Below are positions 3,178 through 57,995 of a stretch of DNA of 64,000 nucleotides, one piece after another. The stretch's first letter is position 1; every line of letters starts with the position of its first letter. The notes beneath the pieces are model-generated. The model had not been told where the DNA came from, searched no databases, and saw nothing but the letters and a program-made list of their open reading frames with translations. This DNA comes from Eledone cirrhosa (taxonomy: Eukaryota). A program made the position numbers and the translations under genes. Location: contig OZ024757.1 of NCBI GenBank assembly GCA_964016885.1, positions 8,618,001 to 8,682,000 of the forward strand, written 5' to 3'.

Positions 3178-3182
<5 letters not shown>

Positions 3183-3505
3183 AAAAAGAGATGAAATCGA
3201 AAATGCAACTGAAGTCTTTTTTTTTTTTTAAATATATATATTTATTTGGTTCCTTTACCGGTTTCGCAGTTCTTCTGCTTTTCAAAAGGTGAGTTGAGAT
3301 GGAGGGTCTGTGGTTTTTCTCACATCTGGTTGGTCTCTGAATGTTACTTGTTTTATATGGAAAAAGTGGCTGGTACATTACTGGTACTTTTAAAAAAATA
3401 AGACTTCAGTTGCATTTTCGATTTCATCTCTTTTTCTTTATACTTTCACTCGTGTAGGACACCTCGGTTATTTTTCATTTTGTAAAAAAAACCCTCACTT
3501 TCTAA
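3178..3505 (+). mobile_element. Palindromic Penelope-pLTR-like element, same family as 8960-9308
   Basis: Shares arm and tail sequence with 8960-9308. A hammerhead-like motif lies on the minus strand at ~3250-3290. Flanked by (TA)n. Confidence 0.65.
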
Positions 3506-4870: not shown

Positions 4871-7800
4871 AAATACGGCGATCTTATCTTAAACCTTACA
4901 TTCTCGCTAACAACCCATCATCCCTCCCTCCCGCCCCCACGCACCACCATCCCTCCCTCCCGCACCCACGCACCACCATTATTACGTGGACCAATCATAA
5001 GTCAGAGGCCCATACTATCGCTTAACTGGTTGCTTTTCGATATGATGGATGGACTACGGAATTCTGGAGAGTTGAAGAGAGAAAAATGTGGACGCTCAGC
5101 GACAATGCCAAAGATAAAGCCAAATTCACCTCGTGGACGAGAATGCAAGCACTCCTCCTTGTTTCGGCCCAGGATGGCTAACATAACCCCATCCCCCCCC
5201 CCGCGCCCCCACCCTCCAAACGCAATCCAAAACTTCAGAGTTGGTACCATGAATGTAGGCACCTTAAAGGGTCGCTCTAACGAGGTTGTAGAAATGCTTG
5301 AACGTAATGAGGTCGATGTTTGTTGTATTCAAGAGACCAGGTGGAGGGGAGGGTCGGCTAGATTCATCGTGGGTAAAGAGCGATGCTATAAGCTTTTCTG
5401 GGTGGGAAATGACAATGGATTGGGTGGGGTAGGAATCATGGTAGCAGAAAAGTGGGCAGATAAGATAATAGACGTAAATAGAGTGAACGACAGAATAATT
5501 AAAATAAGACTTGTCCTCAATAAAACTACGGTGACAGTAATATCTGCGTACGCACCCCAATCCGGACAGCCCCGCGCTATAAAAGACAGATTCTACGAGA
5601 CACTGATGCTCGCTACCTCCCAAATAACCGACAATGACTATATAGTTATTGCAGGCGACCTAAATGGTCACGTTGGACAACATTGTGACGGCTATGACGG
5701 AATCCATGGAGGCTATGGGTTCGGTACTAGAAATGAGGAAGGCTCCACAATCCTGGAATTCTGCGACGCAAATAACTTAACTATCTGTAACACTAACTTC
5801 AAAAAACGAGACAATCACTTGATCACCTATAGATCGGGGGAACACACAAGCCAGGTAGATTATATCCTTACCAGAAGACGTGACAGAGTGTCTGTTGTTA
5901 ACACTAAATCCCACCCACATGAAGAATTCACCTCCCAACATAGACTGATAATTAGCGACCTCATAGTCAGGACGAGACGTACTAGACAGCGAAGGAGGAC
6001 TATCCTCAGGAGAAAAATATGGAAGCTAAAGGACCCCATAGCCAGAAATAAATTTCAAAGCAAATTACTTGACGCTTTCGACAGTAAGGAAGAGCAATTA
6101 GAGTCGTATAATATAGAGGAACAGTGGGAATTCCTGAGAGCAAACCTGCTGACGGCGGCAGACGAAGTCTGTGGCTGGAGCAGGCCTGTAGGTAGGAGGA
6201 GAGTAACATGGTGGTGGAACAGTAAGGTGGAGGAGTCAATTAAGGCCAAAAAGCAGGCTTGGAAAGTATGGCGGGATGGGGGAAGTAGAGAAGACTATCA
6301 AGTGGCCAGGAGGGAAGCTAGGAGACAAGTGTACTTCGCAAGAAGGGAAGCAGAGGAAAGAAAGTTCAAGCATGTTCTACAACGTGAGGACCAAAAACGT
6401 GAGGTGTTCAGGATTGCCAGGCAATGTGTCAAGGAAAACCGTGATATTGTCGGGGAGAAGTGTGTACTTAACGATGATGGCATACTTGCCATCACCGACG
6501 CTGATAAGAAGGTAGCTTGGAAGTGTCACTACGAAAGGCTTCTAAATGAGGAGAACAAATGGGAGAAAGACAGTCTCCCCCAGATCGATCCAATAGAGGG
6601 ACCAGCAGTGTTAGTTGAAGGTAGTATAATAAGTAAGGCAATCAAAGATATGAAGACGGGTAAGGCGGCTGGGCCTTCGGAAATAGTTGCTGAGATGCTG
6701 AAGGCATCTGGTTCGGTGGGACACACCATGGTCACCCGGATAGTTAACCAAGTCGTACAGAATGGGGTTGTTCCGAAGGAATGGCGTAGCAGCATCATCG
6801 TTAACTGCTATAAGGGAAAAGGAGATGCCCTAGATAGGAGTAACTATAGAGGCATTAAATTAATCGACCAGGTCATGAAGGTCACGGAAAAAGTAATAGC
6901 GCAACTAATCAGAGAGAGAATTGATCTAGATGAAATGCAGTTCGGGTTTGTGTCAGGCAAAAGTACCACAGACGCTCTTTTCATTGTACGACAACTACAG
7001 GAGAAGTACCTAGCTAAAAGTAAACCCCTATACTTAGCTTTTGTCGACTTGGAGAAAGCCTTCGACAGAGTCCCCCGTTCCATTATCTGGTGGTCTCTTA
7101 GAAAACTAGGTGTTGACGAATGGCTTGTGAGAGCTATACAAGCCATGTATAAAGAAACAGTCAGTAAGGTTAGAATTAACAACGAATATAGTGAAGAGTT
7201 TAGCGTAAAAGTTGGTGTCCATCAGGGCTCTGTACTTAGCCCCCTACTATTTATTATTGCCCTTCAGGCTATAACAGAGGAGTTCAAGACCGGCTGCCCA
7301 TGGGAACTCCTATACGCAGATGATCTAACGCTCATAGCTGAATCAATGACCGAACTAGAGAAGAAATTCCAAACGTGGAAGCACGGCCTAGAATCAAAAG
7401 GCCTTAAAATTAACCTGGCTAAGACTAAAGTTCTAGTTTGTAGGAAAGAAAATAAGGCGGCGGTCCCATCGGGGAAATGGCCATGCTCAGTGTGTAGGAA
7501 AGGCGTAGGTAGAAACTCCATTTTATGTCCCAAATGCAAAGTATGGGTGCATAAAAGATGTAGTGGGATCACAGGTAAGCTAACTAAGAACATAGATTTT
7601 ACATGTGGCCGGTGCTCTGGTGCAATAAGTAGCAGCAAGTGCCCACAAAATACTAGCTCCTTCAACTGCGCAGAGGGTTCTATAGAAATAGTGGACAGCT
7701 TCCGTTATCTGGGTGACAAAATCAGCAGTGGGGGAGGGTGCTCTGAAAGTACAGTAGCTAGAGTCAGAACTGGATGGAAAAAGTTCAGAGAGCTTATACC

Positions 7801-8269
7801 ACTATTAGCCGCTAGAGGGTTCTCCCTAAAAATGAAAGGCAGGTTATACGATGCCTGCATACGAACAGCAATGCTGCATGGCAGTGAGACCTGGGCATTG
7901 TGTGCAGAGGATATACGCAGACTAGAGAGGAACGAAGCTTGCATGCTCCGCTGGATGTGCAATAGTAATATACGTGAACGGCAAAGCATAAACGAACTAA
8001 GGAAAAAATTAGAAATAAGAGGGATCAGATGTTGTTTACTCGAGAGAAGGCTACGTTGGTACGGTCACGTGATGCGCATGAAAGACGACAGCTGTATAAC
8101 AAAGTGCAGGGCAATAAAGATAGACGGTAGCCACGGAGTAGGCAGACCCAGAAAAACATGGGACGAGCTGATAAATTCCGACCTCACACGCTTACACCTC
8201 TCCAAGACAATGTCACTGGACCGAGACCTTTGGCGGTACTCAGTAATAGAGAAGACCCGCCTTACTTAA
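4661..8269 (+). CDS. RTE LINE protein: AP endonuclease + reverse transcriptase + PHD-type finger (true start probably ~5042-5174)
   Basis: APE motifs (TMNVG, IQETRW, GDLNG, DYIL, SQH) and RT motifs (DLEKAFD, GVHQGSVLSP, YADD); GRPRKTW near the C-terminus. Confidence 0.93.
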   Translation: MPNFFLDPSLHPNPFIQSLLCPNFTLYHIFTIIYHIFSLKIILPLSPHFLYRNFLNKTNLVFSFIVKLCPKYGDLILNLTFSLTTHHPSLPPPRTTIPPSRTHAPPLLRGPIISQRPILSLNWLLFDMMDGLRNSGELKREKCGRSATMPKIKPNSPRGRECKHSSLFRPRMANITPSPPPRPHPPNAIQNFRVGTMNVGTLKGRSNEVVEMLERNEVDVCCIQETRWRGGSARFIVGKERCYKLFWVGNDNGLGGVGIMVAEKWADKIIDVNRVNDRIIKIRLVLNKTTVTVISAYAPQSGQPRAIKDRFYETLMLATSQITDNDYIVIAGDLNGHVGQHCDGYDGIHGGYGFGTRNEEGSTILEFCDANNLTICNTNFKKRDNHLITYRSGEHTSQVDYILTRRRDRVSVVNTKSHPHEEFTSQHRLIISDLIVRTRRTRQRRRTILRRKIWKLKDPIARNKFQSKLLDAFDSKEEQLESYNIEEQWEFLRANLLTAADEVCGWSRPVGRRRVTWWWNSKVEESIKAKKQAWKVWRDGGSREDYQVARREARRQVYFARREAEERKFKHVLQREDQKREVFRIARQCVKENRDIVGEKCVLNDDGILAITDADKKVAWKCHYERLLNEENKWEKDSLPQIDPIEGPAVLVEGSIISKAIKDMKTGKAAGPSEIVAEMLKASGSVGHTMVTRIVNQVVQNGVVPKEWRSSIIVNCYKGKGDALDRSNYRGIKLIDQVMKVTEKVIAQLIRERIDLDEMQFGFVSGKSTTDALFIVRQLQEKYLAKSKPLYLAFVDLEKAFDRVPRSIIWWSLRKLGVDEWLVRAIQAMYKETVSKVRINNEYSEEFSVKVGVHQGSVLSPLLFIIALQAITEEFKTGCPWELLYADDLTLIAESMTELEKKFQTWKHGLESKGLKINLAKTKVLVCRKENKAAVPSGKWPCSVCRKGVGRNSILCPKCKVWVHKRCSGITGKLTKNIDFTCGRCSGAISSSKCPQNTSSFNCAEGSIEIVDSFRYLGDKISSGGGCSESTVARVRTGWKKFRELIPLLAARGFSLKMKGRLYDACIRTAMLHGSETWALCAEDIRRLERNEACMLRWMCNSNIRERQSINELRKKLEIRGIRCCLLERRLRWYGHVMRMKDDSCITKCRAIKIDGSHGVGRPRKTWDELINSDLTRLHLSKTMSLDRDLWRYSVIEKTRLT

Positions 8270-8903
8270 ATACAAAGTAAAAACCTACTACAGTCAGTAG
8301 GCACCTCTATCAAAACACACCCCCGTCCCACCACCTCCACCCCACCCACACCGCCCCTTTCAATGTAAAGTTATGTTGGTCCCACAACATCCAGGCCGAA
8401 ACAAATGAGATCGTGTAGGTGTCACGACAAAAAACACACAGTCCACGCTGTAAATGTGGCCGTGTAGGCAACACGGTAAAAACCTCCCAGCCCCACACTG
8501 TAAATGTGGTTGGTGTTAGGAAGGGCATCCAGCTGTAGAAAACCCGCCAGACAGTCCACGCTGTAATGTGGCCGTGTAGGCAACACGGTAAAAACCTCCC
8601 AGCCCCACACTGTAAATGTGGTTGGTGTTAGGAAGGGCATCCAACTGTAGAAAACCCGCCAGACAGTCCTATGCGAGCAAGACAACCACTCTTGCCTCAA
8701 GTGGGAAAACCCCCGTCCAAACCCATGCAAGCGTGGAACACGGACGCTAAACCTGATGATGATGATGATGATGATGATATATATATATGTATGAGGTTGG
8801 TGTTAGGAAGGGCATCCAGCTGTAGAAATCAAGCCAGAATCAGTTCCTGTCCTACCCCTGCAAGCAGGGAATAACGGACGTAAAAGGATGATGATGATGA
8901 TAC

Positions 8904-8959
<56 letters not shown>

Positions 8960-8966
<7 letters not shown>

Positions 8967-9301
8967 GATGAAATCAAAAATGCAACTGGAGTCTTATTTA
9001 AAAAAAAATATATATATTTATTTGGTTCCTTTACCGGTTTCGCAGTTCTTCTGCTTTTCAAAATTAGAGTTGAGTTGGAGGTTCTGTGGTTTTCCTCACA
9101 AGAGAAAAACCACAGACCCTTCATCTCAACTCTACTTTTGAAAAGCAGAAGAACTGCGAAACCGGTAAAGGAACCAAATAAATATATATATATTTTTTTA
9201 AATAAGACTCCAGTTGCATTTTCGATTTCATCTTTTTTTCTTTATACTTTCACTCGTGTAGGACACCTCGGTTATTTTTCATTTTGTAAAAAAAACCTCA
9301 C

Positions 9302-9308
<7 letters not shown>
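8960..9308 (+). mobile_element. Palindromic Penelope-pLTR-like mini-element with hammerhead motif
   Basis: ~135-bp inverted arms centred at ~9100, a unique tail at 9243-9308, and (TA)n on both sides. Confidence 0.7.
9135..9170 (+). ncRNA. Candidate minimal type I hammerhead ribozyme, U3-A8 core variant
   Basis: CTT-TTGAAAA-GCAG-AAGAA-CTGC-GAAA-CCGG-TA-AAG: stem II GCAG/CTGC, palindromic stem III CCGG, short stem I. Confidence 0.6.
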
Positions 9309-9338
<30 letters not shown>

Positions 9339-9616
9339 GGAGGTGAGTTTTATTGTAGTACAATAAAGCAATGTAGATATCGGATAAGAAGCACTCTACA
9401 GTTTGTAGGACTGGAGTATACATAATATATAAGATATGTTGATTTAAAACTGCACTATCCACAAGTGTTTTTTAACCTTCATATCATGTCTTCCTATTTT
9501 ATCTTATGAAAACACAAATATTATTGCATGATGATGTTTGTTTTTGAAATGCACATAATAAAATACATGGAACTCTTTTAACCATCTTTTGATCTTATAT
9601 ATTATATATATATATA

Positions 9617-10035
9617 GTTAAAAGAATAGAGGTGTAACACACAAGTTATTATATATTGGTAAACGGAATAGAAAATGCTGACAAATTGTTCACAGTTGAA
9701 AAATGGTTTAATTAGGAATAAAAGAGTATTAGTGATTGTATGGGTTAGTATTCAGTTGTGGTTTTAAGTTTTTAAGTTTTTACCGGTTGCGCATTTCTAA
9801 ATGCTTTTCAAAAATAATTTTGAGATAGAGTGTCCGTGTTGATCAGAGCAAACAACACGGACACTCTATCTCAAAATTATTTTTGAAAAGCATTTAGGAA
9901 TGCGCAACCGGTAAAAACTTAAAAACTTAAAACCACAACTGAATACTAACCCATACAATCACTAATACTCTTTTATTCCTAATTAAACCATTTTTCAACT
10001 GTGAATAATTTGTCAGCATTTTCTATTCCGTTTAC

Positions 10036-10040
<5 letters not shown>
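9617..10040 (-). mobile_element. Long palindromic pLTR-like element (~190-bp arms)
   Basis: 9651-9841 is the reverse complement of ~9853-10042. Hammerhead-like TTGAAAA-GCATT..AATGC-GCAA-CCGG-TA. Tail at 9617-9650. Confidence 0.7.
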
Positions 10041-10068
<28 letters not shown>

Positions 10069-16598: not shown

Positions 16599-17789
16599 AT
16601 TATATATTGTAAATTATGATTTTATTTGATGTATCATATCTACATGTATATATATATATACTTGCGTATAATATCAATATACACACTACACATGCTATCA
16701 GAAAACCACCCGAAGCTAGCATGTGTAGTGTGTATATTGATATTATACGCAGGTATATATATACATGTATCATATATACCTGCGTATAATATCAATATAC
16801 ACACTACACATGCTACCTTCGAGTGGTTTTCTGCAAGTTCATATAACGGAAGTTGTTTCTGAATGTATTAAATTATGTAGGGGACTTTTAAGTCATGACA
16901 CCGGTGTCAACTAGACGGTGAAATATTACCATTTATATCAGCTCCATTGTTACAACTTAAACCTCATCTAATTTTATCTTTTATGGTGATTATTTCATAT
17001 TAAGGTGGACGTTAATGTTTGTAAATAACATAAGGTGACTTATTTACCTTATAGTTGTTGTTTTATCACCTGTATTATTAAATATTGAAGGGGTTGTTCA
17101 ACATTTTACAGGACAGGAAAATATTATTTTAATCAGAAATCAGTGAACATTTAGTTTTTACTAACTTTTCTTGACTTTATATTTGGTCTTGACAACTAAA
17201 GTACGTATTATTTCCTTTTCCACCTCAACCCAAACATTGTGAACTTTTCTATCTGAAGTGAAATATCTTGATTTATTACAACACCTACACACATATTTCT
17301 ACACACACGTCTATTACTCTCTCTCATACCTACACACTGTATGTCTGTATATATATATATATATGTATATATATTAACCTTCTTTTGTAATTATGGATAT
17401 TAATTCTCTTGTCACCTGAACTGTCCTCAATAACAAGAACCTTAACTATAGAAGTCTTATTCGTCTGTTTTATGAGCTGAGGATTTTATTGTGAATAGTG
17501 CTTCTCTCACCTTAACAATAATAATAGTGGAATATTCCACAATAATCACACACACACACACACATATATATATATAAGCACTTGCCTTTTCTTCATCCAA
17601 GATCAGTCTTACGCTGACATATGTCTTATTACTTGTACCAACTAAATGCAACATTACAACTTTGTAGAAGAAGAAAGTGGACTTCTGCAGTCTTTTATGG
17701 ACACTCTGTATATTAGAATACATGGCATCTATTAACCATACCTACATATCTTAATGTATCAGTAAAAGTGGTCAGAATCCTTTATGTAA

Positions 17790-19059
<1,270 letters not shown>

Positions 19060-27234: not shown

Positions 27235-27420
27235 TCGGTGGATTGGCAGTATCGGTAGAGTGTCGAACGCCATGCTTTGTAGCATAGAGTTACCTCCCTT
27301 TATGATCTGAGTTCAAATCCCGCCAGGGTTAACTTTGCCGTTCATCCTTACGAGGTCGATAACATAAAGTACCAGTAATACACTGCGATAATTACTCGCC
27401 TTGTGCCAAAAGTAGAAAAT
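27235..27420 (+). mobile_element. Nin/Deu-domain SINE, paralog of 15694-15873
   Basis: Same insertion site and sequence as in unit A. Confidence 0.8.
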
Positions 27421-27673
27421 TATTTTCGTTGTTTGATTCGTTTTTTTTTTTCCATTACTTAAATCTTTTATTACCTTTAATAATGTGTTTTGGTTTAATA
27501 TGAACAGTCATATAACATTAATAACGTTATTTATTCAAATCTGAATAAAGTACTAGCATATCTATTGAACGTATGAATCTAAACTATAATAAAAGGAGGA
27601 GCGTGGGACTGCGTACGGTTTATAATTGTTTATCCCATTAGTAACATAAGTTGGATTACTTTGAATAAATAAT

Positions 27674-27861
27674 TGTTTCTACTTTTGGCACAAGGCCAGC
27701 AATTATCGCAGTGTATTACTGGTACTTTATTTTATCGACCCCGTAAGGATGAAAGGCAAAGTTAACCTCGGCGGGATTTGAACTCAGATCATAAAGGGGG
27801 GTAACTCTATGCTTCAAAGCATGGCGTCCGACCCTTACCGATACTGCCAATCCACGGCCCT
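27674..27861 (-). mobile_element. Nin/Deu-domain SINE with 18-bp TSD
   Basis: TTACTTTGAATAAATAAT at 27656 and 27862; empty site at ~16112. Confidence 0.88.
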
Positions 27862-29204: not shown

Positions 29205-29816
<612 letters not shown>

Positions 29817-36650: not shown

Positions 36651-39600
36651 ATTTTGTAGAGGAGTAGGTATATTTTGTTGGAAGGAATAGGTATATTTTG
36701 TTGGAAGGAGTAGGTATATTTTGTTGGAAGGAGTAGGTATATTTTGTTGGAAAGAATAGGTATATTTTGTTGGAAGGAGTAGGTATATTTTGTTGGAAGG
36801 AGTAGGTATATTTTGTTGGAAGGAGTAGGTATATTTTGTTGGAAGGAATAGGTATATTTTGTTGGAAGGAGTAGGTATATTTTGTTGGAAGGAGTAGGTA
36901 TATTTTATTGGAAGGAGTAGGTATATTTTGTTGGAAGGAGTAGGTATATTTTGTTGGAAGGAGTAGGTATATTTTGTTGGAAGGAGTAGGTATATTTTGT
37001 AGAGGAGTAGGTATATTTTGTTGGAAGGAATAGGTATATTTTGTTGGAAGGAGTAGGTATATTTTGTTGGAAGGAGTAAGTATATTTTGTTGGAAGGAGT
37101 AGGTATATTTTGTTGGAAGGAATAGGTATATTTTGTTGGAAGGAGTAGGTATATTTTGTTGGAAGGAATAGGTATATTTTATTGGAAGGAGTAGGTATAT
37201 TTTGTTGGAAGGAGTAGGTATATTTTGTAGAGGAGTAGGTATATTTTGTTGGAAGGAATAGGTATATTTTGTTGGAAGGAGTAGGTATATTTTGTTGGTA
37301 TGAGTAGGTATATTTTGTTGGAAGGAGTAGGTATATTTTGTTGGAAGGAATAGGTATATTTTGTTGGAAGGAGTAGGTATATTTTGTTGGAAGGAATAGG
37401 TATATTTTGTTGGAAGGAGTAGGTATATTTTGTTGGAAGGAGTAGGTATATTTTGTTGGAAGGAGTAGGTATATTTTGTTGGAAGGAATAGGTATATTTT
37501 GTTGGAAGGAGTAGGTATATTTTGTTGGAAGGAGTAGGTATATTTTGTAGAGGAGTAGGTATATTTTGTTGGAAGGAATAGGTATATTTTGTTGGAAGGA
37601 GTAGGTATATTTTGTTGGAAGGAGTAGGTATATTTTGTTGGAAGGAGTAGGTATATTTTATTGGAAGGAGTAGGTATATTTTGTTGGAAGGAGTAGGTAT
37701 ATTTTGTTGGAAGGAGTAGGTATATTTTGTTGCAAGGAATAGGTATATTTTGTTGGAAGGAATAGGTATATTTTGTTGGAAGGAGTAGGTATATTTTATT
37801 GGAAGGAGTAGGTATATTTTGTTGGAAGGAGTAGGTATATTTTGTTGGAAGGAGTAGGTATATTTTGTTGGAAGGAGTAGGTATATTTTGTTGCAAGGAA
37901 TAGGTATATTTTGTTGGAAGGAATAGGTATATTTTGTTGGAAGGAGTAGGTATATTTTATTGGAAGGAGTAGGTATATTTTGTTGGAAGGAGTAGGTATA
38001 TTTTGTTGGAAGGGGTAGGTATATTTTGTTGGAAGGAGTAGGTATATTTTGTTGGAAGGAATAGGTATATTTTGTTGGAAGGAGTAGGTATATTTTGTTG
38101 GAAGGAGTAGGTATATTTTGTTGGAAGGAATAGGTATATTTTGTTGGAAGGAGTAGGTATATTTTGTTGGAAGGAGTAGGTATATTTTGTAGAGGAGTAG
38201 GTATATTTTGTTGGAAGGAATAGGTATATTTTGTTGGAAGGAGTAGGTATATTTTGTTGGAAGGAATAGGTATATTTTGTTGGAAGGAGTAGGTATATTT
38301 TGTTGGAAGGAGTAGGTATATTTTATTGGAAGGAGTAGGTATATTTTGTTGGAAGGAGTAGGTATATTTTGTTGGAAGGAGTAGGTATATTTTGTTGCAA
38401 GGAATAGGTATATTTTGTTGGAAGGAATAGGTATATTTTGTTGGAAGGAGTAGGTATATTTTATTGGAAGGAGTAGGTATATTTTGTTGGAAGGAGTAGG
38501 TATATTTTGTTGGAAGGAGTAGGTATATTTTGTTGGTAGGAGTAGGTATATTTTGTTGGAAGGAGTAGGTATATTTTGTTGGAAGGAGTAGGTATATTTT
38601 GTTGGAAGGAGTAGGTATATTTTGTTGGAAGGAATAGGTATATTTTGTTGGAAGGAGTAGGTATATTTTGTTGGAAGGAATAGGTATATTTTGTTGGAAG
38701 GAGTAGGTATATTTTGTTGGAAGGAGTAGGTATATTTTGTTGGAAGGAATAGGTATATTTTGTTGGAAGGAGTAGGTATATTTTGTTGGAAGGAGTAGGT
38801 ATATTTTGTAGAGGAGTAGGTATATTTTGTTGGAAGGAATAGGTATATTTTGTTGGAAGGAGTAGGTATATTTTGTTGCAAGGAATAGGTATATTTTGTT
38901 GGAAGGAATAGGTATATTTTTTGGAAGGAGTAGGTATATTTTATTGGAAGGAGTAGGTATATTTTGTTGGAAGGAGTAGGTATATTTTGTTGGAAGGAGT
39001 AGGTATATTTTGTTGGTAGGAGTAGGTATATTTTGTTGGAAGGAGTAGGTATATTTTGTTGGAAGGAGTAGGTATATTTTGTTGGAAGGAGTAGGTATAT
39101 TTTGTTGGAAGGAATAGGTATATTTTGTTGGAAGGAGTAGGTATATTTTGTTGGAAGGAATAGGTATATTTTGTTGGAAGGAGTAGGTATATTTTGTTGG
39201 AAGGAGTAGGTATATTTTGTTGGAAGGAGTAGGTATATTTTGTTGGAAGGAATAGGTATATTTTGTTGGAAGGAGTAGGTATATTTTGTTGGAAGGAGTA
39301 GGTATATTTTGTTGGAAGGAATAGGTATATTTTGTTGGAAGGAGTAGGTATATTTTGTTGGAAGGTGTAGGTATATTTTGTAGAGGAGTAGGTATATTTT
39401 GTTGGAAGGAATAGGTATATTTTGTTGGAAGGAGTAGGTATATTTTGTTGGAAGGAATAGGTATATTTTGTTGGAAGGAGTAGGTATATTTTGTTGGAAG
39501 GAGTAGGTATATTTTATTGGAAGGAGTAGGTATATTTTGTTGGAAGGAGTAGGTATATTTTGTTGGAAGGAGTAGGTATATTTTGTTGCAAGGAATAGGT

Positions 39601-42600
39601 ATATTTTGTTGGAAGGAATAGGTATATTTTGTTGGAAGGAGTAGGTATATTTTATTGGAAGGAGTAGGTATATTTTGTTGGAAGGAGTAGGTATATTTTG
39701 TTGGAAGGAGTAGGTATATTTTGTTGGAAGGAGTAGGTATATTTTGTTGCAAGGAATAGGTATATTTTGTTGGAAGGAATAGGTATATTTTGTTGGAAGG
39801 AGTAGGTATATTTTATTGGAAGGAGTAGGTATATTTTGTTGGAAGGAGTAGGTATATTTTGTTGGAAGGAGTAGGTATATTTTGTTGGAAGGAGTAGGTA
39901 TATTTTGTTGGAAGGAATAGGTATATTTTGTTGGAAGGAGTAGGTATATTTTGTTGGAAGGAGTAGGTATATTTTGTTGGAAGGAATAGGTATATTTTGT
40001 TGGAAGGAGTAGGTATATTTTGTTGGCAGGAGTAAGTATATTTTGTAGAGGAGTAGGTATATTTTGTTGGAAGGAATAGGTATATTTTGTTGGAAGAAGT
40101 AGGTATATTTTGTTGGAAGGAATAGGTATATTTTGTTGGAAGGAGTAGGTATATTTTGTTGGAAGGAGTAGGTATATTTTATTGGAAGGAGTAGGTATAT
40201 TTTGTTGGAAGGAGTAGGTATATTTTGTTGGAAGGAGTAGGTATATTTTGTTGCAAGGAATAGGTATATTTTGTTGGAAGGAATAGGTATATTTTGTTGG
40301 AAGGAGTAGGTATATTTTATTGGAAGGAGTAGGTATATTTTGTTGGAAGGAGTAGGTATATTTTGTTGGAAGGAGTAGGTATATTTTGTTGGTAGGAGTA
40401 GGTATATTTTGTTGGAAGGAGTAGGTATATTTTGTTGGAAGGAGTAGGTATATTTTGTTGGAAGGAGTAGGTATATTTTGTTGGAAGGAGTAGGTATATT
40501 TTGTTGGAAGGAGTAGGTATATTTTGTAGAGGAGTAGGTATATTTTGTTGGAAGGAATAGGTATATTTTGTTGGAAGGAGTAGGTATATTTTGTTGGAAG
40601 GAGTAGGTATATTTTGTTGGAAGGAGTAGGTATATTTTGTTGGAAGGAATAGGTATATTTTGTTGGAAGGAGTAGGTATATTTTGTTGGAAGGAATAGGT
40701 ATATTTTATTGGAAGGAGTAGGTATATTTTGTTGGAAGGAGTAGGTATATTTTGTAGAGGAGTAGGTATATTTTGTTGGAAGGAATAGGTATATTTTGTT
40801 GGAAGGAGTAGGTATATTTTGTTGGTAGGAGTAGGTATATTTTGTTGGAAGGAGTAGGTATATTTTGTTGGAAGGAATAGGTATATTTTGTTGGAAGGAG
40901 TAGGTATATTTTGTTGGAAGGAATAGGTATATTTAGTTGGAAGGAGTAGGTATATTTTGTTGGAAGGAGTAGGTATATTTTGTTGGAAGGAGTAGGTATA
41001 TTTTGTTGGAAGGAATAGGTATATTTTGTTGGAAGGAGTAGGTATATTTTGTTGGAAGGAGTAGGTATATTTTGTAGAGGAGTAGGTATATTTTGTTGGA
41101 AGGAATAGGTATATTTTGTTGGAAGGAGTAGGTATATTTTGTTGGAAGGAATAGGTATATTTTGTTGGAAGGAGTAGGTATATTTTGTTGGAAGGAGTAG
41201 GTATATTTTATTGGAAGGAGTAGGTATATTTTGTTGGAAGGAGTAGGTATATTTTGTTGGAAGGAGTAGGTATATTTTGTTGCAAGGAATAGGTATATTT
41301 TGTTGGAAGGAATAGGTATATTTTGTTGGAAGGAGTAGGTATATTTTATTGGAAGGAGTAGGTATATTTTGTTGGAAGGAGTAGGTATATTTTGTTGGAA
41401 GGAGTAGGTATATTTTGTTGGAAGGAGTAGGTATATTTTGTTGCAAGGAATAGGTATATTTTGTTGGAAGGAATAGGTATATTTTGTTGGAAGGAGTAGG
41501 TATATTTTATTGGAAGGAGTAGGTATATTTTGTTGGAAGGAGTAGGTATATTTTGTTGGAAGGGGTAGGTATATTTTGTTGGAAGGAGTAGGTATATTTT
41601 GTTGGAAGGAATAGGTATATTTTGTTGGAAGGAGTAGGTATATTTTGTTGGAAGGAGTAGGTATATTTTGTTGGAAGGAATAGGTATATTTTGTTGGAAG
41701 GAGTAGGTATATTTTGTTGGAAGGAGTAGGTATATTTTGTAGAGGAGTAGGTATATTTTGTTGGAAGGAATAGGTATATTTTGTTGGAAGGAGTAGGTAT
41801 ATTTTGTTGGAAGGAATAGGTATATTTTGTTGGAAGGAGTAGGTATATTTTGTTGGAAGGAGTAGGTATATTTTGTTGGAAGGAATAGGTATATTTTGTT
41901 GGAAGGAGTAGGTATATTTTGTTGGAAGGAGTAGGTATATTTTGTAGAGGAGTAGGTATATTTTGTTGGAAGGAATAGGTATATTTTGTTGGAAGGAGTA
42001 GGTATATTTTGTTGGAAGGAATAGGTATATTTTGTTGGAAGGAATAGGGATATTTTGTTGGAAGGAGTAGGTATATTTTATTGGAAGGAGTAGGTATATT
42101 TTGTTGGAAGGAGTAGGTATATTTTGTTGGAAGGAGTAGGTATATTTTGTTGCAAGGAATAGGTATATTTTGTTGGAAGGAATAGGTATATTTTGTTGGA
42201 AGGAGTAGGTATATTTTATTGGAAGGAGTAGGTATATTTTGTTGGAAGGAGTAGGTATATTTTGTTGGAAGGAGTAGGTATATTTTGTTGGAAGGAGTAG
42301 GTATATTTTGTTGCAAGGAATAGGTATATTTTGTTGGAAGGAATAGGTATATTTTGTTGGAAGGAGTAGGTATATTTTATTGGAAGGAGTAGGTATATTT
42401 TGTTGGAAGGAGTAGGTATATTTTGTTGGAAGGAGTAGGTATATTTTGTTGGAAGGAGTAGGTATATTTTGTTGGAAGGAATAGGTATATTTTGTTGGAA
42501 GGAGTAGGTATATTTTGTTGGAAGGAGTAGGTATATTTTGTTGGAAGGAATAGGTATATTTTGTTGGAAGGAGTAGGTATATTTTGTTGGCAGGAGTAAG

Positions 42601-43181
42601 TATATTTTGTAGAGGAGTAGGTATATTTTGTTGGAAGGAATAGGTATATTTTGTTGGAAGGAGTAGGTATATTTTGTTGGAAGGAATAGGTATATTTTGT
42701 TGGAAGGAGTAGGTATATTTTGTTGGAAGGAGTAGGTATATTTTATTGGAAGGAGTAGGTATATTTTGTTGGAAGGAGTAGGTATATTTTGTTGGAAGGA
42801 GTAGGTATATTTTGTTGCAAGGAATAGGTATATTTTGTTGGAAGGAATAGGTATATTTTGTTGGAAGGAGTAGGTATATTTTATTGGAAGGAGTAGGTAT
42901 ATTTTGTTGGAAGGAATAGGTATATTTTGTTGGAAGGAGTAGGTATATTTTGTTGGTAGGAGTAGGTATATTTTGTTGGAAGGAGTAGGTATATTTTGTT
43001 GGAAGGAGTAGGTATATTTTGTTGGAAGGAGTAGGTATATTTTGTTGGAAGGAGTAGGTATATTTTGTTGGAAGGAGTAGGTATATTTTGTTGGAAGGAG
43101 TAGGTATATTTTGTTGGAAGGAGTAGGTATATTTTGTTGGAAGGAGTAGGTATATTTTGTTGGAAGGAGTAGGTATATTTT
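36651..43181. repeat. 23-bp satellite (TATTTTGTTGGAAGGAGTAGGTA)n, ~280 copies
   Basis: Directly visible; the 23-aa period in the ORF track equals 3 units. Confidence 0.98.
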
Positions 43182-45274: not shown

Positions 45275-45625
45275 TTAGAAAATGAGATTTTTTTTACAAA
45301 GTGAAAAATAACCGAGGTGTCCTACACGAGTGAAAGTATAAAGAAAAAAAGATGAAATCGAAAATGCAACTGGAGTCTTATTAAAAAAAAATATATATAT
45401 TTATTTGGTTCCTTTACCGGTTTCGCAGTTCTTCTGCTTTTCAAAAGTAGAGTTGAGATGGAGGGTCTGTGGTTTTTCTCTTGTGAGGAAAACCACAGAA
45501 CCTCCATCTCAACTCTAATTTTGAAAAGCAGAAGAACTGCGAAACCGGTAAAGGAACCAAATAAATATATATATTTTTTTTTAATAAGACTCCAGTTGCA
45601 TTTTCGATTTCATCTTTTTTTCTGT
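45275..45625 (-). mobile_element. Inverted copy of the palindromic element at 8960-9308
   Basis: Near-identical reverse complement, including the adjacent RTE tail remnant. Confidence 0.8.
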
Positions 45626-45809: not shown

Positions 45810-45874
<65 letters not shown>

Positions 45875-46893
45875 GAAAAGCATTTAGAAATGCGCAACCG
45901 GTAAAAACTTAAAAACTTAAAACCACAACTGAATACTAACCCATACAATCACTAATACTCTTTTATTCCTAATTAAACCATTTTTCAACTGTGAACAATT
46001 TGTCAGCATTTTCTATTCCGTTTACCAATATATATATATATGTCCAAAATTAAAATTAAGGGTTGTCATGTCTGAGAGACATGCGCCATATCCACCGTAG
46101 AATAAGCTCAAAGATTAGATCCGAGCATTACATATCAACTAGAAATAGATTGACATATATATATATATAATAAATACATGAAACAATCACAGGGAATAAT
46201 TTGTAAAGAATGTAGGCACACATAGCTAGGTAGGAAACTAATTAAAGTTTAACTAGAACTTCAAATATAGATACCTTTTAAAATGATTAATCTCCTTTGT
46301 ATATATTTCTTTAAGTAAGAAATATATTTTGCCTTGGCTGCTATTTCTAGCGCTAAAATTAAAACCTGAAGTGGACAAGATGAAAAAGTTAGCTAAAATT
46401 CAGTCTCAACTTTTTAAACAATAGATTTTTTTCATGTCAACAAACGGAGAATATTTGGCAAGAAAGATAACTCTTGTCTTACTTAAAGCACGAAATTGAG
46501 TTACAAATTTTGCGGGTCTGCAGTTTATATAAACCTTCTTATTTGGTCTTGTTAACTGGCATTTGACTGCTATTTCTAGCATATATTAATAGACACTTTA
46601 GAAATAGCAGCCAAAAGTCAGCTAACAACACTATAGGAAACACCAGAAAGAAGGACTCATGCGCACACACACACGCATATATATATAAATGTACATGAGT
46701 GTGTGTGTGTGTATATATATACATGTACACACACACAGACGTGTGTGTGTGCGTTTATATATATATATATATATACACACACACGCACAAAGATATTAAT
46801 ATATGTGTGTATATATATATAATGTATGTATGCATGTGTGTATATATGTGTATGTATTCATACATACATATATATGTGTATATATATATATAT

Positions 46894-52654: not shown

Positions 52655-53210
52655 AAAAATATACCTACTCCTTCCAACAAAATATACCTACTCCTTCCAA
52701 CAAAATATACCTACTCCTTCCAACAAGATATACCTACTCCTTCCAACAAAATATACCTACTCCTTCCATCAAAATATACCTACTCCTTCCAACAAAATAT
52801 ACCTACACCTTCCAACAAAATATACCTACTCCTTCCAACAAAATATACCTACGCCTTCCAACAAAATATAGCTACTCCTTCCAACAAAATATACCTACTC
52901 CTTCCAACAAAATATACCTACTCCTTCCAACAAAATATACCTACACCTTCCAACAAAATATACCTACTCCTTCCAACAAAATATACCTACACCTTCCAAC
53001 AAAATATACCTACTCCTTCCAACAAAATATACCTACACCTTCCAACAAAATATAGCTACTCCTTCCAACAAAATATACCTACTCCTTCCAACAAAATATA
53101 CCTACTCCTTCCAACAAAATATACCTACACCTTCCAACAAAATATACCTACTCCTTCCAACAAAATATACCTACACCTTCCAACAAAATATATCTGCTCC
53201 TCTACAAAAT
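52655..53210. repeat. Short inverted array of the 23-bp satellite (~24 copies)
   Basis: (CAAAATATACCTACTCCTTCCAA)n with the same flanks as the long array, in inverted orientation. Confidence 0.95.
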
Positions 53211-57575: not shown

Positions 57576-57995
57576 CTAGTGTTGACTACATTTGTGAACA
57601 ACCAGCGAAGAATTCCATGTGAAAGATTTCTCACATATTTCATAATGGAACGGTTTTTCTCCAGTGTGACTCCGTATGTGGATGACAAGATTAGAATTAT
57701 AAGTGAAAGATTTCCCACATATTTCACAATGGAAGGGTTTCTCTCCAGTGTGACTCCGTATGTGGATGACAAGATTAGAATTATAAGTGAAAGATTTCCC
57801 ACATATTTCACAATGGAAGGGTTTCTCTCCAGTGTGACTCCGTATGTGGATGACAAGATTAGAATTATAAGTGAAAGATTTCCCACATATATCACAGTGG
57901 AAGGGTTTTTCTCCTGTGTGTATTTTCCCATGTGAGGTTAGTTTCAGTTTTGAAGAGAAAGTTTTCCTGCAAATCTCACAGCTATATTCAGACAT
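57576..57995 (-). CDS. C2H2 zinc-finger protein, 4 fingers plus 1 degenerate finger
   Basis: MSEYSC start; three near-identical TYNSNLVIH fingers; the last finger lacks its first Cys. Confidence 0.8.
   Translation of the reverse strand: MSEYSCEICRKTFSSKLKLTSHGKIHTGEKPFHCDICGKSFTYNSNLVIHIRSHTGEKPFHCEICGKSFTYNSNLVIHIRSHTGEKPFHCEICGKSFTYNSNLVIHIRSHTGEKPFHYEICEKSFTWNSSLVVHKCSQH

Follow-up and report, generated by a model that had tools for sequence, protein, structure and literature searches.

A palindromic hammerhead repeat in (TA)n arrays of Eledone cirrhosa almost certainly derives from the ends of an autonomous Penelope-like retrotransposon

Introduction

The closest described counterparts of the repeat reported here are the hammerhead motifs of the Cercyon Penelope-like element (PLE) of S. 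mansoni. The U3-A8 descriptor of Cervera and de la Pena (2014) gave ~1,300 matches in that species, and the available text of their paper describes pairs of motifs on opposite strands at distances of 100-700 bp, a small palindromic helix III and low, dimer-only activity (PMC4209133). Dimer cleavage is also covered, as far as its accessible text goes, by a 2019 ribozyme review. Furthermore, Craig et al. (2021) described inverted truncated copies, one-sided tails, microsatellite targets and the linker in PLEs (PMC8557442). In the published work on Neptune/Nematis-type elements, an optional ORF1 with a frameshift appears in a figure legend, and TATA and Inr-like motifs have been noted in a rotifer pLTR (PMC8557442, PMC3846280). 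The promoter in the pLTR of D. virilis Penelope was described as TATA-less (Schostak et al. 2008).

The origin of inverted PLE copies has been addressed by Arkhipova et al. (2013), who attributed the palindromes of rotifer Penelopes to self-priming on an antisense template and did not consider the matter settled (PMC3846280). In vitro, the protein of PAc (Poseidon, Anolis carolinensis) cuts and extends both strands, prefers uncleaved RNA and starts internally at two tail-defining sites; the hammerhead lies upstream of these sites and is dispensable for in vitro insertion (PMC11167929). A 2026 paper on Octopus vulgaris repeats lists active Penelope families, and the word hammerhead is absent from the part of its text that was available. 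Here, we describe a palindromic repeat in a stretch of 64,000 nt of the Eledone cirrhosa assembly GCA_964016885.1 (contig OZ024757.1, positions 8,618,001 to 8,682,000; the whole stretch is hereafter called the window).

Results

Anatomy of the palindrome and its neighbors

Inverted-repeat detection in the window identified two arms, 8953-9097 and 9102-9246, of 145 nt each and 93% complementary, separated by a 4-nt loop. The resulting palindrome (8953-9246) is followed by a one-sided tail of 61 nt and has (TA)n on either side (Table 1). Both the inverted pair and the TA arrays bear out the layout proposed for 8960..9308 by a first-pass annotation of the window, namely (TA)n, inverted arm, loop, arm, unique tail and (TA)n, and descriptor matches on the two strands confirmed its placing of a hammerhead in each arm. 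In full-length copies, the tail continues to the ORF1 start codon, ~22 nt beyond the second end point; the palindrome product has neither promoter nor ORF. An Rfam scan returned no hammerhead family among 150 of 294 matches listed, which were mostly sub-threshold miRNA hairpins.

Table 1. Coordinates of the palindrome and of related copies in the window
Feature	Position	Strand	Evidence and details
Left (TA)n target array	8900..8962	.	Repeat detection
Left arm, inverted PLE leader copy without tail	8963..9100	-	Begins ~39 nt upstream of its own hammerhead core; terminates at the short (+108-type) end
Left U3-A8 minimal hammerhead motif	9061-9032	-	Descriptor match; stem I down to 2 bp
Right arm, a PLE leader copy that begins ~36 nt upstream of the core and terminates at the first end point	9102..9246	+	First end point at TATA microhomology, 9243-9246
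Right U3-A8 minimal hammerhead motif	9138..9167	+	Descriptor match; predicted cut after A9167; 4-bp stem II, palindromic ACCGGU stem III, 3-bp stem I
One-sided tail to the second (+178-type) end point	9247..9307	+	
Right (TA)n target array	9308..9335	.	Repeat detection
Independent insertion of the same PLE family (family 1)	3178..3505	.	Hammerhead descriptor and sequence comparison; - strand: long arm (3373 to 3178), TATA box 3357-3351 and the only hammerhead (3285-3256), whose stem I has 4 bp; + strand: short partner arm and tail
Copy sharing its junction with 8960-9308	45275..45625	-	Hammerheads - 45444-45415 and + 45521-45550
Palindrome of family 2, a PLE family related to family 1	9650..10044	.	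U3-A8 hammerheads + 9883 and - 9811; GCAA core; stem II contains U-A
Solo family-2 arm	45868..46030	+	Hammerhead core at 45873

Two of these copies had been annotated as relatives of the palindrome. For 3178-3505, the 4-bp stem I was found as described, and the palindrome with two hammerheads was not, this copy having unequal arms and one hammerhead. Since its center junction is identical to that of 8960-9308 and the same SINE-like fragment adjoins both, the copy at 45275-45625 most likely represents a segmental duplicate of one insertion and not a separate insertion.

The window is an animal region rich in C2H2 zinc-finger and AT-microsatellite sequence. In the TA array of the palindrome, positions 9337-9600 hold another repeat end, whose tail-like terminus resembles PLE tails and which is probably a third PLE family. 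Tandem C2H2 zinc-finger-like repeats of 84 bp (and 80 bp) lie at 17960-18937, 29294-29776, 57619-57920 and 651-1362, within segmentally duplicated blocks. A 23-bp satellite (285 copies, 95% identity, extreme GC skew) spans 36660-43181, with a shorter inverted array at 52656-53201, and further inverted repeats occur at 16696-16832 and 27259-27835.

The hammerhead motif

By descriptor scan, the motif has the minimal type-I hammerhead core, with the 3-8 pair, stem II, a palindromic stem III and stem I; a run allowing U3-A8 recovered the U3-A8 core and palindromic stem III that had been proposed at 8960..9308. Comparison of families 1 and 2 shows conservation of the core, CCGG and UA, with stem II changing from G-C to U-A and stem I from C-G to U-A. 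The covariation expected in stem II is thus seen between the two families, in few independent events and without a formal statistic. In family 2, thousands of hammerhead copies read GCAA in place of GAAA, which puts C at core position 13, and their stem I consists of A-U pairs throughout. Further minimal hammerheads with other stems were found at L091:1954, L064:56, L068:40 and L048:1073, two of them C3-G8 types, one with a 7-bp stem I, and two U3-A8 types.

As described in the available text on Cercyon (PMC4209133), the motifs of that element share with ours the U3-A8 core, short helix I, G10.1-C11.1, palindromic helix III, pLTR location, opposite-strand pairs and the truncation of most copies. 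Our motifs depart from those of Cercyon in a stem II of 4-5 bp, in lacking an extra base between 9 and 10.1, in a 6-nt palindrome as stem III and, for family 2, in a C at position 13; their copy number (11,539 exact cores) is also ~tenfold higher. The view that standard CUGANGA searches would miss this family was overstated, as the U3-A8 variant had been published with its own descriptor.

The monomer folded no better than shuffled sequences (z -0.2 to -0.7), and two copies were predicted to cofold via ACCGGU with stem II intact. The read-through RNA of the palindrome was predicted to form one long hairpin (-204.7 kcal/mol) with the hammerhead buried. The suggestion that the hammerhead acts as a dimer agrees with the two-copy cofold but fails within a single palindrome, whose two hammerheads lie on opposite strands and therefore cannot dimerize in cis. 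Because of this orientation and of the hairpin modeled for its RNA, ribozyme activity is unlikely for the 8960..9308 copy; it is predicted as likely for the motif of the parent element. In a search for a genomic footprint of cleavage, the parent sequence was lost just before the cut site in 187 arms versus 105 at a control position 7 nt upstream, a comparison in which over half of the 100 matches listed look, by eye, like small indels. The TA-matched cut-site test gave 22 versus 8 (p 0.35), with a control valid for ~55% of copies.

The parent element

The parent was traced by a stepwise genome walk upstream from the longer arm at 3255-3395, which crossed ~1.4 kb of 3' UTR and then reached a GIY-YIG domain. 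At locus L061, a 777-aa open RT+GIY-YIG frame with a DKG motif lies ~1.4 kb upstream of a family-1 3' end. Protein P0001 carries RVT_1 at 297-444 (E 5.9e-6, below the gathering score) and GIY-YIG at 684-772 (E 2.4e-6, above it), and its linker before EN, C-x4-C-x2-C, fits CX2-5CxxC. It has 2,538 homologs at E<=1e-20, the best-scoring of which carry the same RT and GIY-YIG domains. A PDB search for relatives gave 0 matches, and a metagenome scan for RT relatives gave 97 pattern matches, 0 of them confirmed. Some PLE RT-EN homologs (P0013, P0041, P0042, P0059 and P0121) are labeled as bacterial gill-symbiont proteins and probably represent host DNA in those assemblies.

The parent, of ~4.8-5 kb, is ordered as a promoter-like 3' UTR, hammerhead, tail, ORF1, overlapping RT-EN ORF2, 3' UTR and hammerhead. 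In walked copies, ORF1 (~400 aa) starts at an ATG beyond the tail. Hammerheads both before ORF1 and after ORF2 were found in 4 of 16 regions chosen as likely long copies, three of family 1 (L139, L140 and L141) and one of family 2 (L134). The full-length L134 has the layout of family 1; between the families, RT is ~55% identical and ORF1 46%. Where ORF1 and ORF2 overlap, the heptamer U UUU UUA is retained in both families (L138 3071-3125, L143, L134 ~4773-4707), from which we infer that ORF2 would be expressed via a -1 frameshift. An A-rich heptamer was dropped as a candidate frameshift site, U UUU UUA being the one kept in both families. In L140, one extra T at the overlap heptamer is accompanied by a long fused frame (938 aa). 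Additionally, other Penelope-like ORFs are nested in a family-1 copy (L063:3589-4989 and 6565-8729).

The parent is an EN+ PLE, putatively of Neptune type by its CX2-5CxxC linker, a trait found in Nematis as well. In the accessible descriptions of Neptune/Nematis-type EN+ PLEs (PMC8557442, PMC3846280), the shared traits are RT, the linker, GIY-YIG, the DKG motif, pLTRs, an inverted 5'-truncated copy, the one-sided tail and microsatellite targets. Differences lie in the tail (~70 nt in family 1 and ~40 in family 2, versus 30-40 typically), in the ~1.4 kb 3' UTR and in the single upstream edge at which more than half of the arms stop.

The genome-wide check thus confirmed the linkage of the arm to a PLE RT/GIY-YIG ORF that the annotation had proposed looking for. 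Its reading of 8960..9308 as a separate non-coding ribozyme-bearing family was not sustained, because the same sequence forms the pLTR, or 5' leader, of autonomous RT-GIY-YIG elements in this genome. The palindrome is almost certainly of PLE origin: two pLTR end copies lie back to back within (TA)n, and were probably left there as a dead by-product when the parent integrated.

Copy number and pairing

The exact 30-nt core has 11,539 copies in the 3.0-Gb genome and the reversed control 0, so the match is not due to chance; a looser pattern that takes in family 2 gave 25,253 genome matches. Among the first 100 consecutive exact cores on C1, 26 neighbors lay within 6 kb, 24 of them head-to-head with gaps of 21-3,512 nt, the 3,512-nt pair being two separate insertions. 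One same-strand pair was found within 6 kb, 3,039 nt apart, and no short same-strand tandem occurred in this sample. In true pairs, the hammerhead-to-hammerhead distance ranges from 21 to 1,498 nt, which speaks against propagation as a palindromic unit.

Exactly one tail was present in 49 of 52 inverted pairs (none in two, both in one), a set in which 23 pairs had been chosen by likeness to 8960..9308 or as long copies. These 52 pairs remain from 59 rows after removal of four joining different insertions (L023-1426, L025-1459, L027-834 and L102-1407) and three duplicates (L090, L025-76 and L005). Furthermore, both arms agreed at the -5/-4 variant in all 27 scorable pairs of the 29 in the C1 sample (6 of one type and 21 of the other); discordant arms were seen by eye in L213 and perhaps in L030.

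The upstream edge

On C1, 53 of the 100 consecutive exact-core arms start at -44..-30, counted from the core. None start at -50..-45, 7 at -99..-51 and 8 nearer the core, and 32 start further up, an approximate count because alignments break off at repeats. The hard upstream edge lies at -43/-42. In the whole genome, the parent sequence disappears immediately before -42/-41 in 1,129 arms. Solo copies directly joined to (TA)n show the same edge, which is thus not a fold-back artifact. On the downstream side, arms terminate at two fixed positions relative to the core, +108 and +178, both coinciding with TA microhomology. Loose ends of independent sequencing contigs coincide with the upstream edge and the two downstream ends (L138 1683-1686, 1833-1836 and 1904) in four contig sets from at most 3 samples and 2 studies, which are not on record as RNA. 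By summed contig depth, a rough measure, the leader is ~400-fold more abundant than ORF1.

TATAAAA lies 30 nt before A(-42), and further upstream are words that we take to be CCAAT-, E-box- and E2F-like. Family 2 retains a TATA-like box and CAGAT, and 5 of its 8 arms, a small sample, start at -42..-30, with one at -48. At (TA)n joins, an untemplated G is frequent before A(-42), with 37 G versus 11 T among the 100 matches listed out of 170. A second junction set gave 12 G versus 4 A among the 100 matches listed out of 314, three of the 12 being tandem duplicates. Both counts were made by eye, and their p values (~2e-4 each) are against the flank composition of the retrieved DNA. An untemplated G is the expected trace of copying a cap. 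Among edges joined to (TA)n, ~40% also carry the templated C(-43), which would imply a mixed start site. In ORF1-bearing copies, the upstream pLTR extends beyond the TATA box in 7 of 10, starts at the edge in 1 and below it in 2. Although CAG/ATG at the edge resembles a splice acceptor, this candidate was not favored, as no common upstream exon was found in the loose ends (agreement 0.47-0.61) or in the flanks.

Discussion

The hard edge, the extra G and the one-tail rule suggest how the short copies arise. Most probably, they result from twin internal priming on one sense RNA, with synthesis running to its capped 5' end. Transcription would start at A(-42), 30 nt below the TATA box, and the endonuclease would cut both (TA)n strands. 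The 3'-OH on either strand would then prime reverse transcription internally on one and the same sense RNA, at +178 in one case and at +108 in the other. Synthesis of both cDNAs would proceed as far as the cap, and their ends would be joined head-to-head. The hammerhead would work in the RNA of the parent only, as a dimer via ACCGGU or with the protein of the element, and would probably be uncleaved in the copied RNA. As reported in the accessible text for PAc (PMC11167929), two internal RT start sites likewise bracket the tail, targets are AT-rich and both strands are extended. PAc belongs to a different clade, its ends are not homologous to the target whereas both ends here lie at TA microhomology, and here the hammerhead and tail precede the ATG instead of lying within the ORF. 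Against twin priming, it must be considered that the start site and the cap are inferred from DNA only. Moreover, since 7 of 10 ORF1-bearing copies reach beyond the TATA box, template jumps or multimeric read-through RNA would be needed for these, and the shared haplotype of the arms could also be due to fold-back synthesis or later gene conversion.

A less probable origin from the same PLE is fold-back, in which one cDNA would prime itself, or formation of the palindrome on an antisense template; the edge would then be a pause or processing site. In its favor are arms with a common haplotype and break points that are often near-symmetric even in long arms (-148/-148, -62/-66). Junctions at microhomologies and the weak hairpin predicted as possible at the leader 5' end also agree with it, and head-to-head palindromes were so interpreted by Arkhipova et al. 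(2013), as far as the consulted text shows (PMC3846280). Against it, solo copies share the edge, and some of them end at +108 without a partner, which makes +108 a start of its own. In L094 and L230 the partner is a tail alone, as fits twin priming, and the TATA spacing in two families together with the G excess points to a capped sense 5' end.

Two further explanations concern the nature of the repeat itself. That a non-coding, ribozyme-bearing mini-retroelement, similar to a retrozyme or a SINE, propagates as a palindromic unit seems very unlikely to us: short forms far outnumber ORF1-bearing ones by the rough depth measure and certain junctions recur, but the spacing of the pairs varies widely over many different junctions, and copies near the window that have an identical junction also have flanks in common, as would be expected of duplicates. 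Such a unit would also be without a TATA box and would make the long hairpin RNA that buries the hammerhead. As described in the available text (bioRxiv 10.64898/2026.07.22.740005), non-LTR (animal) retrozymes are likewise non-coding, have a type-I hammerhead and are proposed to derive from PLE pLTRs. However, they form head-to-tail tandem arrays with same-strand hammerheads, in contrast to the head-to-head pairs or solos found here, which are unable to self-process; among the 100 C1 cores, the single same-strand pair within 6 kb and the absence of short tandems speak against a non-LTR retrozyme. Hardly any weight can be given to a Tc1/mariner-type MITE with TA target duplication and an incidental hammerhead match. 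Inverted arms with TA on their flanks are what such an element would show, yet the ends are asymmetric, with a tail on one side in nearly all pairs, arm length varies instead of forming fixed-length symmetric terminal inverted repeats, stems II and I covary between families, and parent copies encode RT-GIY-YIG, not a transposase. The annotation had likewise favored a retroelement over a MITE, and in this it was right.

Returning to priming within the sense leader, we give even chances to a broader proposal. Palindromes, tails and solo pLTRs may all be strong-stop products, primed by both strands of a cut (TA)n site at +108 and +178 in the capped leader of one sense RNA and stopped at the transcription start. 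Full-length and tandem copies would then require a template jump, as in retroviruses, onto the 3' repeat of the RNA, and the downstream hammerhead may define where that repeat ends. Our literature search returned no paper stating this or an A13C PLE hammerhead in the text that was available; entries for this family or close ones may exist in the supplements to the Cervera 2014 and Craig 2021 papers.

Regarded as a ribozyme, the locus offers little that is unusual: both the variant and its occurrence in PLEs are known, and U3-A8 hammerheads, opposite-strand pairs and one-sided tails are already published in the accessible text of PMC4209133 and PMC8557442. Family 2 adds a natural A13C core variant, and the >25,000 cores in this genome are open to mis-annotation as MITEs or miRNA hairpins. 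The value of these copies lies in a natural data set on PLE replication, covering the formation of tandem and inverted copies, the use of a sense or antisense template and the role of the hammerhead; the edge at TATA distance, the cap-like extra G and the one-tail-per-pair rule lead to specific predictions. With thousands of young copies in this genome, the strong-stop proposal is directly testable. If true, it would replace the antisense-template account of PLE inversions and would give the PLE hammerhead a job.
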